A stretch of DNA of 15,650 nucleotides, from IMG/VR virus record IMGVR_UViG_2703718817_000011. The stretch is one strand, 5' to 3'. The stretch comes from a virus (Duplodnaviria; Heunggongvirae; Uroviricota; Caudoviricetes). The position numbers were made by a program, and so were the translations under genes. Positions 7,621 to 13,626 of the stretch are shown one piece after another; position 1 is the first letter of the stretch; every line of letters begins with the position of its first letter. The notes under the pieces are model-generated. The model made no database searches. It had not been told where the DNA came from and saw only the letters and a program-made list of their open reading frames with translations.

Positions 7621-7650
7621 GAACAACGTGGAACAACCACGAACAAATAA
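7621..7650 (-). repeat. Three helically phased TTGTTC repeats upstream of the packaging operon
   Basis: Plus strand gaacaacgtg gaacaaccac gaacaaataa; minus strand reads TTGTTC at a 10-bp period; related to the repeats at 251-270 and 14341-14390. Confidence 0.5.
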
Positions 7651-7653
7651 TTT

Positions 7654-7686
7654 ACAAAAAATAACAAAAAGCCGGATTGCTCCGGC
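7654..7686 (-). terminator. Intrinsic terminator after the perC-like gene
   Basis: GCCGGA-ttgc-TCCGGC stem at 7671-7686 followed on the minus strand by UUUUUGUUAUUUUUUG. Confidence 0.55.
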
Positions 7687-8395: not shown

Positions 8396-8701
8396 TCAGT
8401 GAAGCGATCCGGCGTTGTTCTTTTTCATCTCTTCCATCATTTTTTCAGTGAGCATTACGCACTGAAAACCCATGCTTTTGATGTCTACGGGTTTCATGCC
8501 TTTGTCTGTGGATATCACAGGCAGAATATCCTGATACACATCGCGGTCAGGGTAACTAAGCACACAAAGCGCCCATGATGCCACGGGTGAGGATCCTTCG
8601 TCTGTTTCAACCCACCAGCCTGGTGTAGCTGCGCTTATTTGCAGAATCGTGATCCGTCCGTTGTGCTTGTAAAATTTTTCACCAAATTTTGGTTCGCTCA
8701 T
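8396..8701 (-). CDS. Hypothetical protein (101 aa)
   Basis: ORF with an ATGA overlap to the upstream gene; 10-nt gap to ssb; no recognisable family. Confidence 0.5.
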   Translation of the reverse strand: MSEPKFGEKFYKHNGRITILQISAATPGWWVETDEGSSPVASWALCVLSYPDRDVYQDILPVISTDKGMKPVDIKSMGFQCVMLTEKMMEEMKKNNAGSLH

Positions 8702-8949
8702 GATTCCACCTCTCCGGTTTTAACGTTGATTGTTGTTACCTGTTCCGCTTCGGCAATCTCCCGTTCTGTCAGCGTGGCAAAGTTTGCCGCCGCTGTGGTC
8801 ATGAATGCGCTTATCAGTTCGGGATGCTCCTTCGCGTATCCTTCCCCCGCGTGGCGGTCTATCGTTCTGATTGCCACCTTTAAAGCGTGCTCTGTCATGT
8901 CTAACGCTTTATATTTTGGCTGTGTTCTGTCTCTGCGTTTTTGTGTCAT
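8698..8949 (-). CDS. Hypothetical protein (83 aa)
   Basis: Start taken at the internal ATG 8949 (GGTGGGGAG SD); the upstream part of track ORF 8698..9144 overlaps the iteron region and is probably non-coding. Confidence 0.4.
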   Translation of the reverse strand: MTQKRRDRTQPKYKALDMTEHALKVAIRTIDRHAGEGYAKEHPELISAFMTTAAANFATLTEREIAEAEQVTTINVKTGEVES

Positions 8950-8950
8950 C

Positions 8951-9155
8951 TCCCCACCTATACCCACTTTTACTCCCCACTTTTCACAATTCCCCATCTC
9001 GTTAAAGGCGTGGGATTTGTAATTTTTATCATGCTGTTTCATAAGGATTTTTTTGCTCCCCACTTTTTGGGATGTATACAGGTCAAAAAGTGGGGGATTG
9101 TGTTTAAATTTTGTTAAATTCCCCATACCCACCACTTTTGCCACCCACTTTTTAC
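8951..9155. repeat. Putative replication origin: CCCCACTTTT-type iterons flanking an AT-rich segment
   Basis: At least six copies of CCACTTTT in both orientations (about 8965, 8977, 9060, 9084 inverted, 9133, 9146) around an AT-rich stretch at 9011-9056, immediately 3' of the replication gene. Confidence 0.5.
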
Positions 9156-10561
9156 AGTGGCCCTACATCATCGCCGTCAACATAGATAACGCCGTCTTTT
9201 TCCAGCTTGCCCAGCCAGCGCCGGAAGTGCTTTATTTCGTACCCCAGTTTTTTCATGTCATCACGTAACAGCGGGATCGTGCACTTGTCGCCGTTCTGTG
9301 TGCGTGAACGGATACACCCCCATAGCGCGGTATGGTTTTCCGTCTTGTTGCCTGCCTCTTCGATGCGCTCCAGTTCAACGGGAGGGCGCGGCTTATCCAC
9401 CACCACCAGCGACGTGATTAACTCCCCGTCAGCGTCGGTAAAAAGCTCCACCACCCGCAAATCATAGGCAGCCTCTTTGAGTTCCTCCGCGTCCTTCATT
9501 TTGGTGCATGAGATAACCAGCGCTTCGCTTCCTGCGTCCTCCCTGCGTATCCGGTATTCAGCATCCAGTGATGCACGAAATGCACTGGAACCGCGCGCGC
9601 CTTTCGTCTCATCCTTGCCGGAATGGTGAACCACCAGCACCGTGGCCCCTGTGCGTCGTTTCAGTTCGTCACACCCACGGATAAACGCCCCCATGTCGCG
9701 GGAGTCATTTTCATCATTGCCGCCAAAGCAGCGCGCCAGCGTGTCCAGAATAATCATGCGAACAGGTTTACCCGTTTCCCTCTCCACCTGACTGGCAGCA
9801 ATAACCAGTTCATCAACATCAAGCGGGACAGCCGGAAAGATGGGACGGTTTACCAGATACAGATTTTTCACCTGCTCACCGTGCACAACCTCCCAGGCTT
9901 TTACACGACGCGGAACGCCGATACCGCCTTCACCAACCACATAGAGAACAGCGCCATGCGCCACCCTGCGGCCTCCCCACTGGCGGCCCGTGGAAACGTG
10001 ACACGCCCACGATCCGGCAAGGAATGATTTATAGGAACCGCTCGCCCCGTATATGCTGCAAAGCGACGATGCCGGAATAATCCCCTTTACCACGTAATCA
10101 AGTTGTGTGTCGTATCCGGTAGATCCAACGCTCATCGGTAGCGTGGTTTTTCGCTGGGGGATTTTTTTCATGACCAGGCTTTCCCCGCGTTCCCATGCCT
10201 CCCTAAGCCGTGGAAGCTGGTCGCTCCATTCCTCCAGCAATTCGAAATTTTCAGAAAGTAGCCGCGCCTCCTGGACTCCGGCGATCGCCAGTTTCGTGGC
10301 GATGGTTAACAGCTGCGGCTCTTCAATATTTCCGGCGCGTATCACCGTCGCCCTGTATCGCCCATCATCAACAATCTGGAGGTTATCCAGTTCGCTTAAC
10401 TGATAACGCCCCAGATAAACGGGAGGGACTGGATCGCCTGCTTTTTTGGCCTGTGCAATGATGTAATGCTCTGCGAATGAGTGAGCATCAATACCCGCAA
10501 AAATAATCGCATCGGTGTATTTGTCTTTCGGTAATAGTTTTACGTTCGGTGCCAGTTTCAT
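9152..10561 (-). CDS. Replication initiator/helicase-type ATPase (AAA_25/RepA-like), candidate PICI Pri-Rep
   Basis: 469 aa with Walker A GASGSYKS, Walker B-like MIILDTL and an HHSGK motif typical of AAA_25 RecA-like replication proteins; N-terminal domain about 150 aa of unknown type. Confidence 0.7.
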   Translation of the reverse strand: MKLAPNVKLLPKDKYTDAIIFAGIDAHSFAEHYIIAQAKKAGDPVPPVYLGRYQLSELDNLQIVDDGRYRATVIRAGNIEEPQLLTIATKLAIAGVQEARLLSENFELLEEWSDQLPRLREAWERGESLVMKKIPQRKTTLPMSVGSTGYDTQLDYVVKGIIPASSLCSIYGASGSYKSFLAGSWACHVSTGRQWGGRRVAHGAVLYVVGEGGIGVPRRVKAWEVVHGEQVKNLYLVNRPIFPAVPLDVDELVIAASQVERETGKPVRMIILDTLARCFGGNDENDSRDMGAFIRGCDELKRRTGATVLVVHHSGKDETKGARGSSAFRASLDAEYRIRREDAGSEALVISCTKMKDAEELKEAAYDLRVVELFTDADGELITSLVVVDKPRPPVELERIEEAGNKTENHTALWGCIRSRTQNGDKCTIPLLRDDMKKLGYEIKHFRRWLGKLEKDGVIYVDGDDVGPL

Positions 10562-10857
10562 TTTTTACCCCTGAATCCGTTAATCATGGTTTTCAGCTTC
10601 TGGATGTTTGCCCGTGCCCTGACGTTGCTGGTGGGCACGTTATGCGGCGCGGTCTGTACCAGAGAAAAATCACGCCGGAACTGATAAACAGGCATCACGC
10701 AATCATATTCGTAACCTTCACGGCGGTAAGTTACGCACCGTCCCGCCACGCCCTTAATCATTACCGTGCCGCCGTACTGGTCGCGGTAAATATCACCGCG
10801 CGTAAATTTAGGGTGAGTGTTGCCACTGGCAGTTAAGCCAGAATATTTAAGTTTCAT
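10558..10857 (-). CDS. Hypothetical protein (99 aa)
   Basis: ATG 10857 with a GGAGAA SD; ATGA overlap with the rep start. Confidence 0.5.
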   Translation of the reverse strand: MKLKYSGLTASGNTHPKFTRGDIYRDQYGGTVMIKGVAGRCVTYRREGYEYDCVMPVYQFRRDFSLVQTAPHNVPTSNVRARANIQKLKTMINGFRGKK

Positions 10858-11555: not shown

Positions 11556-11757
11556 AAAGCATCCCCTGAATATTCGTGTTAATCATTCCGGCACGTTTTG
11601 TGATTTCCTGTAATGATTCCCTTGTGGCGACAATTGCTTCATCTGGTAAGTGGTAATTACACACCACGCGACCTTTATCCACATTGACCAGTAGCTGCCC
11701 TGTGAATTTCTCACGAAACTGAATGCGGTTAAGGTCAGTAAGTGACAGATTAATCAT
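11545..11757 (-). CDS. Hypothetical protein (70 aa)
   Basis: ATG 11757 preceded by a strong AGGAGGTG SD and overlapping the upstream stop. Confidence 0.5.
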   Translation of the reverse strand: MINLSLTDLNRIQFREKFTGQLLVNVDKGRVVCNYHLPDEAIVATRESLQEITKRAGMINTNIQGMLYAQ

Positions 11758-12307
11758 GGCGCACCTCCTGACGAATACGGGCGGCAAATACAGCAACACA
11801 ACCGGACGGGCAACGGTTACGCGCTTCGCGTTCCGTCCAGGCGGTTACGTGGATGATTTGATGGTCTGACGCGCCAAAGGCAATAAAGCGCCAGATAAAG
11901 GCTGTTTGAGAATGTACGAGGGCAGGGGTAGTAGCCATGTTGGCAGCCTCCTCAGTGTGGTTAAGATAACCGCCACGCAAAAGGCTAATTTCGCTGGTGG
12001 CGGACTGTACAGGGTTAGCCTTACCGGACACTGAAGAAACCGGCGCGGATTGCTCCGCCCCCGTACAGCCCACCATTGATAAGGTGTGACTATGCGGCAC
12101 AAAAAAACACGCGGGACGCGTGCTGTGCGCTTCAGTTGTTTTCAGGAGGCTAATCCCGACACCCGTTTTATGAGGTGCGCGGGAATCATAGCTATTTTCG
12201 ACACTGGCGATCAACTGGTTTTTTTCTCCGATATTCAGGGCCAGAAAACGCCACACAAAGGCAGTTTGTGTGTGTACAAGGTGTGGTATATGATTTACAG
12301 CAACCAT
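11750..12307 (-). CDS. Icd-like (P4 host cell division inhibitor-like) protein with tandem duplicated domain and internal start
   Basis: ATG 12307 with an AGGAG SD; two copies of an LVH(T/S)QTAF(V/I)WRF segment; second in-frame ATG at 11938 has its own GAGGAGG SD; Icd-like call from recollection of P4-like island proteins. Confidence 0.5.
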   Translation of the reverse strand: MVAVNHIPHLVHTQTAFVWRFLALNIGEKNQLIASVENSYDSRAPHKTGVGISLLKTTEAHSTRPACFFVPHSHTLSMVGCTGAEQSAPVSSVSGKANPVQSATSEISLLRGGYLNHTEEAANMATTPALVHSQTAFIWRFIAFGASDHQIIHVTAWTEREARNRCPSGCVAVFAARIRQEVRHD

Positions 12308-12398
12308 AACGGCTCCTAGTTTACGTTGTTGGTTAGAAGCCCTGCGAGTGGTAACGACACTTGCGGGGCTTTGTCTTTTCATCGATTACCTTGATAAA

Positions 12399-12501: not shown

Positions 12502-12681
12502 ATGGCAACAAAAGCAGTTAATGCAAAATCCAAAAAGCTTGAGGCTCGAGTACCACACGCAATAGCTGATGCTGTAGAAAATTTAAAGGAAGATGGCGAA
12601 AGTACAGGGCAATTTATCGTTTCGGCACTTGAAGGCGAGATCAAACGCCGCCAGCGCCGCAAGGCCAAAGAATCAGAATAA
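12502..12681 (+). CDS. Ribbon-helix-helix (CopG/Arc-like) DNA-binding protein, 59 aa
   Basis: ATG 12502 with a GGAA SD; predicted beta-strand/helix/helix layout (KLEARVPHAIADAVENLKEDGESTGQFIVSALEGEIKRR); divergent from the replication operon. Confidence 0.55.
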   Translation: MATKAVNAKSKKLEARVPHAIADAVENLKEDGESTGQFIVSALEGEIKRRQRRKAKESE

Positions 12682-12738
12682 TCACTATCAGCGCCGTGGT
12701 GTGAGGTACTACGGCGCATTGCTTTACAGGGCAGTATC

Positions 12739-12966
12739 ATGACCAACAACACACTATCACCAATACAAGACACGCAAACGCAAGATGATGAATTCATCCG
12801 GCAAAGGCAGTCAGAAGCCTGCGCCAGACTTGAGGAAGAACTAACCAGAACAAAAATACCACCACCAGCGCCGCGCTTAGTGCCACCAGAAAAATTTGCC
12901 CTTGAAGATTTTGTCGATAAATACCCACGGCGGCTTAAATCCGGCAAAAACCGACCGCCAGGATGA
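12739..12966 (+). CDS. Small protein of unknown function (75 aa), partner of the upstream RHH gene
   Basis: ATG 12739 follows the conserved 44-nt hairpin element; paralogous to 13423..13626. Confidence 0.45.
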   Translation: MTNNTLSPIQDTQTQDDEFIRQRQSEACARLEEELTRTKIPPPAPRLVPPEKFALEDFVDKYPRRLKSGKNRPPG

Positions 12967-13185: not shown

Positions 13186-13365
13186 GTGTCAACACACAAA
13201 AATGAAAGGCGTGGTAATCCTCCTTTCCAGTTCCGTTTAGATCCTGACTTACGGGAAAAGATGGAAAAAGCACAACAACAAGACGGTGATGACTCTTTAG
13301 CTGCTTGGATAAAACGAATAATCCGAAAAGAATTACAGCAACGCGGTATTGAACCCAAAGAATAA
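13186..13365 (+). CDS. Arc-like ribbon-helix-helix protein, about 59 aa (start uncertain, GTG proposed)
   Basis: Not in the ORF track (below 60 aa with a non-ATG start); hand translation gives VSTHKNERRGNPPFQFRLDPDLREKMEKAQQQDGDDSLAAWIKRIIRKELQQRGIEPKE, resembling P22 Arc; GGGGTG SD-like 8 nt upstream. Confidence 0.5.
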   Translation: MSTHKNERRGNPPFQFRLDPDLREKMEKAQQQDGDDSLAAWIKRIIRKELQQRGIEPKE

Positions 13366-13422
13366 AAAACATCAGCGCCGTGGCGTGAGGAACTCCGGCG
13401 CATTGCTTTACAGGTACACACA

Positions 13423-13626
13423 ATGACCAATAAAGAATCAACCAATACACCATCGCAAAAAACGAACAGAGAGCACGAAAATATGGCGCTCGAGCATGAA
13501 TCAGAAAGATTCGCTCCATGCGCTTTTGTCCTTGATGAGTTTCTAAAAAAATATTCACGTTCTGAACGGATGAAAATGGCAGCACAATACGGCCCCAACA
13601 AGCAAGGTAATTGCCCACCAGCCTGA
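13423..13626 (+). CDS. Small protein of unknown function (67 aa), paralogue of 12739..12966
   Basis: ATG 13423 follows the second copy of the 44-nt element; both proteins start MTN and share a C-terminal F(A/V)L(E/D)(D/E)F..KY.R motif. Confidence 0.45.
   Translation: MTNKESTNTPSQKTNREHENMALEHESERFAPCAFVLDEFLKKYSRSERMKMAAQYGPNKQGNCPPA

Follow-up and report, generated by a model that had tools for sequence, protein, structure and literature searches.

The intergenic gap at positions 8950-9154 of the window, the whole 15,650-bp stretch of DNA analyzed here, very likely serves as vegetative replication origin for a capsid-forming PICI whose adjacent Rep would act as initiator-helicase; the probability of this reading is put at roughly 0.85. 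It rests on repeats that exceed chance expectation and are confined to the gap, on the same gene order in EcCICFT073, from which a rep-ori fragment replicates experimentally, on iteron positions that are kept across alleles and genera together with covariation of Rep residue 445 with iteron base 6, and on a 17-kb Klebsiella island that carries the same module and was assembled as a separate circular replicon. The iteron-type origin proposed in the initial annotation is thus supported by position, repeat architecture, element type, the slot shared with EcCICFT073 and Rep-iteron covariation.

The Repeat Array Downstream of rep

The genes around the gap are all encoded on the minus strand. The rep gene (9152-10561), which encodes a RepA-family helicase of 469 aa, ends with TAA at 9152-9154, and the next gene downstream (8698-8949, minus strand), phrog_1231, starts with ATG at 8949 and encodes an 83-aa protein of unknown function. 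The position of the phrog_1231 gene next to the origin is conserved in this island type. A 148-aa open reading frame with a GTG start at 8698-9144 was discarded as a spurious upstream extension of the 83-aa gene across the origin. The gap left between the two genes measures 202 bp (8950-9151). The initial annotation had placed an origin at 8951-9155, an interval that agrees with this gap plus the rep stop codon, and its placement 3′ of the replication gene is correct because rep is a minus-strand gene.

A word search of the whole 15,650-bp window finds five exact copies of CCCACTTTT, and all five fall inside 8950-9152, that is, within 1.3% of the window. Four of these are on the plus strand (8963, 8976, 9059 and 9144) and one, at 9086, is inverted on the minus strand; a copy with one mismatch begins at 9131. 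In gene-strand orientation the repeat unit is A[AG][AG]TGGGG, mostly preceded by A's, and degenerate copies of this core are found on the rep strand at 8952-8959, 8992-8999 and 9121-9128. Once degenerate copies are counted (about five, in addition to the five exact ones) the gap holds about ten repeat sites. The earlier claim of repeats in both orientations together with an AT-rich segment is confirmed by these five exact copies, one of them inverted, and by two AT-rich stretches between the repeat groups.

Such an array could have arisen by chance, as an accumulation of one short C/T-rich word in intergenic DNA that is rich in AT. A relaxed search lends this idea a little weight: with one mismatch allowed the window holds 9 copies against a mean of 4.7, and 8 of 200 shuffles attain 9. 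The concentration of the exact copies argues otherwise. The most frequent 7-, 8- and 9-mers of the 203-bp region occur 6, 6 and 5 times, compared with shuffle maxima of 5, 3 and 4, and none of 2000 dinucleotide-preserving shuffles of this region attained the observed 7-, 8- or 9-mer count. In the other 203-bp tiles of the window the top k-mer count does not exceed 3-4. Site positions are moreover conserved across genera, and the copies change in concert at base 6. The shuffles, the cross-genus positions and this concerted change together exclude a chance cluster, the probability of which is close to nil.

Layout of the Putative Origin

The putative origin (8950-9154, minus strand) extends from the rep stop codon to the base preceding the ATG of the next gene. 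It begins with a rep-proximal set of three direct iterons, S1-S3 (9121-9152, minus strand), which read on the rep strand AAAAGTGGGT at 9143-9152, AAAAGTGGTG at 9130-9139 and GTATGGGG at 9121-9128 and are spaced by about 12-13 bp. A short AT-rich spacer (9097-9120, 87.5% AT) leads from this set to a central inverted iteron pair, S4/S5 (9058-9096), formed by CCCCACTTTTT at 9058-9068 and AAAAAGTGGGGG at 9085-9096 around the dyad TGTATACA at 9073-9080. This pair is a near-palindrome with 19-nt arms that are 84% complementary; as single-stranded DNA the central hairpin has a folding energy of -11.7 kcal/mol (z = -4.6). Next comes the main AT-rich stretch (9016-9055, 77.5% AT), a candidate DNA unwinding element, and the 30-mer at 9015-9045 lies at the 99.5th percentile of least stable duplex within the window. 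An uncertain, weak inverted iteron-like site, GCGTGGGA, follows at 9008-9015 on the plus strand. The rep-distal set, S7-S10 (8952-8999, minus strand), is again all direct and reads on the rep strand AGATGGGG at 8992-8999, AAAAGTGGGG at 8975-8984, AAAAGTGGGT at 8962-8971 and AGGTGGGG at 8952-8959. Sets S1-S5 and S7-S10 therefore stand on either side of the AT-rich stretch at 9016-9055. Across this stretch the strong iterons share one direction; inverted copies are limited to the central pair and the weak site at 9008-9015.

A classical iteron-plasmid origin with a Rep_3/RepA-type initiator was considered and rejected: the gap contains neither an exact DnaA box, one-mismatch DnaA-box-like words occurring at chance level only, nor an IHF consensus, and the protein linked to the iterons is a helicase.

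The position of the outermost sites bears on a different explanation, in which the repeats are Rep-binding transcription operators, serving autoregulation of rep or control of phrog_1231, SSB, PerC or the packaging genes, while the island is copied from a site elsewhere or relies on the helper phage for replication. The first iteron shares sequence with the rep stop codon, and the last one (8952-8959) reaches into the ribosome-binding region and the beginning of the next gene. A scan of 8600-9500 yields a single terminator-like site, which is inside rep on the opposite strand; as the gene strand has none, transcription must pass through the gap. Initiators also frequently double as repressors. 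However, the same scan of 8600-9500 detects no sigma-70-like promoter, and the gap is laid out like an origin, with iterons in two sets, a TATA dyad inside an inverted pair and an AT-rich stretch of low duplex stability. The putative reader of the repeats is a helicase of the hexameric type, and in EcCICFT073 the same slot is a functional origin. The two roles are compatible: an operator function is possible in addition to that of the origin, but unlikely as the only one.

The Host Island Is a Capsid-Forming PICI

Positions 8600-10600 of the window are 100% identical to the chromosome of E. coli O43 RM10042, where the RefSeq annotation describes an island of about 15.5 kb that splits tqsA. The island opens with an integrase, a small HTH regulator, an Icd-like gene, several small genes and a DUF4222 gene. 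These are followed by the "helicase RepA family protein", the gap, two small genes, SSB and PerC, and then by an HK97-type capsid, a protease, portal, head closure and connector proteins, an HNH protein, TerS and TerL. The RefSeq annotation of the island lists no tail or lysis genes and no ParA or ParB genes. By the published criteria (10.1101/2025.02.11.637232; 10.1101/2022.09.08.507074), this annotation makes the island a capsid-forming PICI. That the element is a satellite, as first supposed from the sequence, is upheld by this gene content and by the insertion in tqsA.

Several further features of the island were recorded. The att core ATAACAGCA, listed for tqsA-inserted PICIs in Table S1 of Fillol-Salom 2018, is present in one copy at 129-137 and probably marks one island boundary; a second copy would be past the right end of the window. 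Two Rfam matches above the gathering score lie on the minus strand directly upstream of the Icd-like gene, namely a C4 antisense RNA (RF01695, 75 bits) at 11993-12080 and the Hfq-binding sRNA isrK (RF01394, 62 bits) at 12102-12178. The segment 11993-12178 looks like a c4-icd module resembling the immI of P1/P7 in the regulatory region of the satellite, and the long open reading frames listed around it, for instance 11750-12382, are probably spurious. A 75-nt direct repeat (12675-12749 and 13359-13433, 80% identical, 684-bp spacing) coincides with two successive plus-strand pairs of small genes in the RM10042 record, each a YlcI/YnfO family gene and a hypothetical gene, which suggests a tandem duplication of this small-gene module. 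Another direct repeat is 33 nt long, begins AACAACGTGGAACAA and is 79% identical between its two copies. One copy, at 251-283, lies past the final gene close to the left island end, and the other, at 7622-7654, separates perC from the capsid gene; the repeat could serve regulation or be related to packaging.

Domain Organization of Rep

The only Pfam match in Rep is AAA_25 (residues 151-318, E = 3e-43); the same scan gives no primase match and no D5 match. Among solved structures the best sequence match is RSF1010 RepA (1g8y), at a marginal level. A Foldseek search with the full-length AlphaFold2 model, which was built with 22 homologs, returns weak RecA-fold matches to Rad51/RadA, T7 gp4 and KaiC, their weakness being due to the poor quality of the model in the helicase core (pLDDT 67).

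The C-terminal domain (residues 405-469; 9155-9349, minus strand) is predicted by AlphaFold2 to be a winged helix-turn-helix. Its model has helices at 408-422, 429-438 and 446-455 and strands at 459-462 and 465-468, with pLDDT 80-90. Residue 445 (His, codon at 9227-9229, minus strand) is placed at the N-terminal end of helix 3 in the helix-turn-helix, which carries a beta-hairpin wing. Profile searches with this domain yield Crp/MarR-type matches, all of them sub-threshold, that align helix 3 and the wing. Phage homologs of the helicase align only to residues up to about 420 and thus stop short of the C-terminal domain, which fits a domain added for initiator function.

The N-terminal domain (residues 1-125; 10187-10561, minus strand) has a Toprim-like fold without the Toprim glutamate and is probably what is left of a primase domain that is no longer active. 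In at least one long homolog (P0118, 680 aa), Zn_Ribbon_Prim and Toprim_3 precede the helicase, and many other Rep relatives are about 700 aa in length. BLASTP of the Rep N-terminal domain against the Toprim region of a long homolog detects no significant similarity, and the tie to Toprim is one of fold comparison alone. The N-terminal part is modular. Residues 1-140 (10142-10561) are about 45% diverged between E. coli alleles with near-identical helicase domains, and the N-terminal domain is also fused, at 47-57% identity, to DUF927 or P4-family primase proteins in replicons of Klebsiella, Arsenophonus and E. coli.

The gene had been labeled pri-rep. In the strict sense of a primase-helicase fusion this label does not hold, the protein being a RecA-fold AAA_25 helicase without a Pfam primase and with a degenerate Toprim-like N-terminus. 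A strict pri-rep with an intact primase domain is ruled out by the missing Pfam primase match and the absent Toprim glutamate. Instead of a working pri-rep, the gene probably encodes a helicase-initiator with a primase remnant. Membership in the AAA+ families of SaPI Rep or EcCICFT073 Pri-Rep was likewise rejected, since Rep matches the RecA-fold AAA_25 and not D5.

Comparison with Known Replicons

PICI origins have been described as two iteron sets around an AT-rich stretch directly 3′ of the initiator gene (PMC6092414, PMC9371898), and iterons in both orientations with an AT-rich stretch 3′ of rep are reported for several E. coli PICIs (PMC6092414). The SaPI/PICI arrangement claimed for the window at the outset holds in its position 3′ of rep and in the iteron sets around an AT-rich stretch, and fails in the strict sense of "pri-rep".

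The origin of EcCICFT073 is the only enterobacterial PICI origin shown experimentally: its rep-ori fragment keeps a temperature-sensitive plasmid only when rep and ori are both intact (PMC6092414). The slot has the same order in both elements (DUF4222, rep, gap, phrog_1231-type gene, SSB, PerC), and in both of them iterons in the two orientations and an AT-rich stretch lie directly 3′ of rep. The components themselves differ. The EcCICFT073 initiator is a 584-aa D5_N/DUF5906/Pox_D5 primase-helicase (SF3, AAA+), to which the RecA-fold AAA_25 Rep of the window is unrelated; its iteron is GGTAGAYA in a gap of 288 bp, whereas the window has AAGTGGGG in 202 bp.

Closer relatives are EcCI042 and EcCIEDL933 (O157), which encode a RepA-family Rep about 80% identical to that of the window in the same slot and with the same origin layout; EcCI042 also shares the tqsA attachment site. 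Its Rep is one of four "Pri-Rep" variants in Fig. S10 of the 2018 paper (PMC6092414). The RepA-type replicon had thus been noticed before, while replication was demonstrated only for the unrelated CFT073 type. The O157 allele (L002) has Asn445 and GTGAGG iterons in place of His445 and GTGGGG in the window, and the annotated region of EcCI042 lacks the terminase, portal and HNH genes found in the window island.

According to PMC9371898, SaPI origins (SaPIbov1, SaPI1 and SaPI5; Ubeda 2007, 2012) have 6-12 iterons directly after rep and an AT-rich center, and the SaPI Rep is a helicase that loads itself and recognizes the iterons, with allelic specificity, by a winged helix at its C-terminus. The window resembles these systems in an origin directly after rep, in short iterons with an AT-rich stretch near the middle and in the predicted winged-helix reader of its Rep. 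However, SaPI Reps are AAA+ proteins (SF3 or MCM-like) of 3′-5′ polarity, whereas the window Rep is RecA-fold and SF4-like, and by analogy with its family a 5′-3′ polarity would be expected. SaPI iterons measure 5-6 bp, compared with 8-10 bp in the window. The central inverted pair with a TATA dyad is a conserved and prominent feature of the window type that sets it apart from SaPIs, and the SaPI iterons, according to PMC9371898, are opposed across the AT-rich stretch, while the strong sites of the window mostly point in the same direction.

Further afield, T7 gp4/Twinkle-type primase-helicases and RSF1010 RepA resemble the window Rep in a Toprim-type N-terminal fold joined to a RecA-fold hexameric helicase core, and in human Twinkle the primase-like part looks degenerate, as it does in the window Rep. 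These proteins have no origin-binding winged helix, unlike the window Rep, for which one is predicted; RSF1010 uses a separate initiator, RepC, for its iterons. In the alpha protein of phage P4, a primase, a helicase and a C-terminal winged-helix origin binder that reads short repeats are united in one polypeptide. The likeness to the window is that of a satellite replicon in which one multidomain protein recognizes short repeats, a recognition that for the window Rep is predicted (cf. PMC6092414). The alpha protein is, however, of the D5/SF3 type, its iteron sequence differs, and its two sites, ori and crr, are separated, whereas the window has one compact cluster adjacent to the gene.

Conservation of the Layout among Relatives

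Loci of Rep relatives, 244 in number, were gathered from species genomes, IMG/VR and metagenomes; they include Xenorhabdus, Pectobacterium, Serratia, Morganella, Pantoea, Erwinia, Kosakonia, Klebsiella, Gilliamella and others. The order of sites directly after the Rep stop codon is kept in nearly all of them, the non-redundant ones numbering about 180 and coming from many Enterobacterales. Direct sites stand at offsets of about 1-2 and 10-14 from the stop codon, the inverted pair at about 54-58 and 82-86, and further direct sites at about 142, 168 and 180. The dyad is followed by an AT-rich stretch of about 40 bp (71-74% AT at +20 to +60, as a mean of 58 non-redundant loci). Of the 74 loci examined for the inverted pair, 53 have it, with a TATA-type center and a spacer of 20-22 nt; the spacer measures 20 nt in the relatives and 22 nt in the E. 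coli alleles, and the center is TATATA or TGTATACA. A reverse-oriented site at an offset of about 137, which corresponds to the weak inverted site of the window (9008-9015), is clear in the Xenorhabdus relatives but not in the E. coli alleles.

In three aligned E. coli alleles the iteron positions are kept while the spacers have diverged. Compared with the window, the O157 allele has CTCAC in place of CCCAC at five of six repeat positions, that is, at every scorable one.

The same Rep-origin module is found in Klebsiella pneumoniae pKp_Goe_795-4 (CP018459.1; L247), a capsid-forming PICI of 16,971 bp that was deposited as a circular plasmid. It has Ser at the position of residue 445, GTGCGG iterons (C-class) and the same layout, and so agrees, as an independent case, with the pairing of residue and base described below. 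Between its integrase and terminase genes is a 3.4-kb gene with the annotation "phage tail tape measure protein".

Reduced arrays also exist in nature. Two natural variants, L024 and L073, have lost the entire array. In an IMG/VR contig (L146) a deletion has removed all of the origin after the first three iterons, which directly adjoin the downstream gene; this may be a replication-defective island. Part of a 2-kb query is matched in 1554 of 5426 complete E. coli genomes, at a median of 2 and up to 8 places per genome. An incompatibility signature, in which islands of the same genome avoid a shared iteron class, was not seen: two or three islands with one and the same class coexist in many genomes of Xenorhabdus and E. 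coli.

Rep Residue 445 and Iteron Base 6

The repeat core is AAGTG-N-GG, and N, base 6 of the iteron, varies by lineage. In 179 non-redundant pairs of C-terminal domain and origin, the residue aligned to His445 of the window within the motif K-X-[FLMY]-x-R-W-L predicts this base with zero exceptions. His (67 loci) and Lys (28 loci) go with G, Asn (61 loci) with A, and Ser (15 loci) and Gly (8 loci) with C. Among 270 variable columns, drawn from the last 335 residues of Rep, column 445 alone has full mutual information with the iteron class (1.00), the next best reaching 0.60; within the E. coli-like clade only, the values are 1.00 and 0.39. Minimal pairs display the same association, since MKHFRRWLYKL occurs with G and MKNFRRWLYKL with A, as do MKHFSRWLRKL and MKNFSRWLRKL, respectively. 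Two alleles combine a changed residue after 445 with changed next bases (KNM with GTGAGT and KHL with GTGGGC), and the neighbors of 445 may therefore tune the bases that follow, Phe to Met going with GTGAGT and Phe to Leu with GTGGGC.

The class switches at least 31 times on the helicase-domain tree, and identical helicase domains bear different classes. One Rep (L087) differs from that of the window by only seven residues, all of them between 411 and 461, yet is accompanied by A-class iterons at practically all sites, with just the first degenerate distal one unclear. This allele, along with the identical helicases of different class, indicates that C-terminal domain and origin form a cassette that is exchanged as a unit. 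Allele-specific pairing of the predicted C-terminal winged helix with the iterons is thus found computationally, both in the 179 loci and in the cassette swaps.

With less than 150 bp between the winged helix and the origin, which move as one cassette, linkage could account for part of the association between residue 445 and base 6. Linkage alone is insufficient, however, because residues nearer the origin (460, 461 and 467) associate with the class much less well and because all copies across 200 bp change together. Comparison of the sequences thus favors, with somewhat more than even confidence, a near one-residue-to-one-base code in which His or Lys at 445 would specify G, Asn would specify A and Ser or Gly would specify C, spread by at least 31 cassette exchanges. 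This rule has not been reported in the literature searched, and the family-wide conservation of the RepA type likewise goes beyond it.

The same covariation weighs against a role of the repeats that does not involve Rep. Repeat arrays are present at some pac and par sites, and the island has its own TerS, TerL and HNH proteins; the array could accordingly be a packaging or recombination site (cos/pac) for the terminase of the island, or a centromere-like partition site, bound in either case by a protein other than Rep. The residue that covaries with the repeats is nevertheless one of Rep, and the repeats travel with the Rep C-terminal domain rather than with the packaging module. EcCI042 has the same Rep-iteron module in an annotated region without terminase, portal or HNH, and the island has no ParA or ParB genes. 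Such a site is very improbable, more so than the exclusive operator considered above, which is itself unlikely.

Proposed Mechanism of Initiation

For the preferred reading, that of a replication origin served by Rep, the following sequence of events can be proposed. After induction and excision, the adjacent 469-aa Rep would be made, a RecA-fold, SF4-like helicase that would serve as initiator and helicase both. Its winged helix would bind the roughly ten AAGTGGGG-type iterons, with His445 reading base 6. The iteron spacing within a set is about one helical turn and would bring several Rep subunits onto the same face of the DNA. Duplex opening and self-loading of the helicase would then take place at the inverted pair, with its flexible TATA dyad, and at the adjoining AT-rich stretch of about 40 bp. 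Against this scheme stand the shortness of the AT-rich stretch and the absence of a DnaA box or IHF consensus from the gap. Priming would probably be carried out by the host DnaG, as Rep has no Pfam primase match and a Toprim-like fold without the key glutamate. For this type of Rep we infer binding, melting, self-loading and autonomous replication alike. The initiator logic would be that of SaPI Rep and P4 alpha and can be likened to that of the SV40 and papillomavirus initiators, with a RecA-fold motor in this case.

Implications for PICI Replication

The most probable starting point for the copying of this capsid-forming satellite is now placed. The general picture of PICI replication is unchanged by this; what is added is that enterobacterial PICIs use at least two unrelated initiator-helicases, of the D5/SF3 and the RepA/RecA-fold type, in one slot and with origins that are built alike. 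The covariation between residue and base provides a cheap and precise prediction, in which an H445N substitution is matched to iterons changed from G to A. If the code is true, enterobacterial satellites would fall into discrete classes of replicon specificity, and this specificity would be re-programmable by one substitution. Possible uses are the sorting of satellite replicons by specificity class and the building of orthogonal small replicons.
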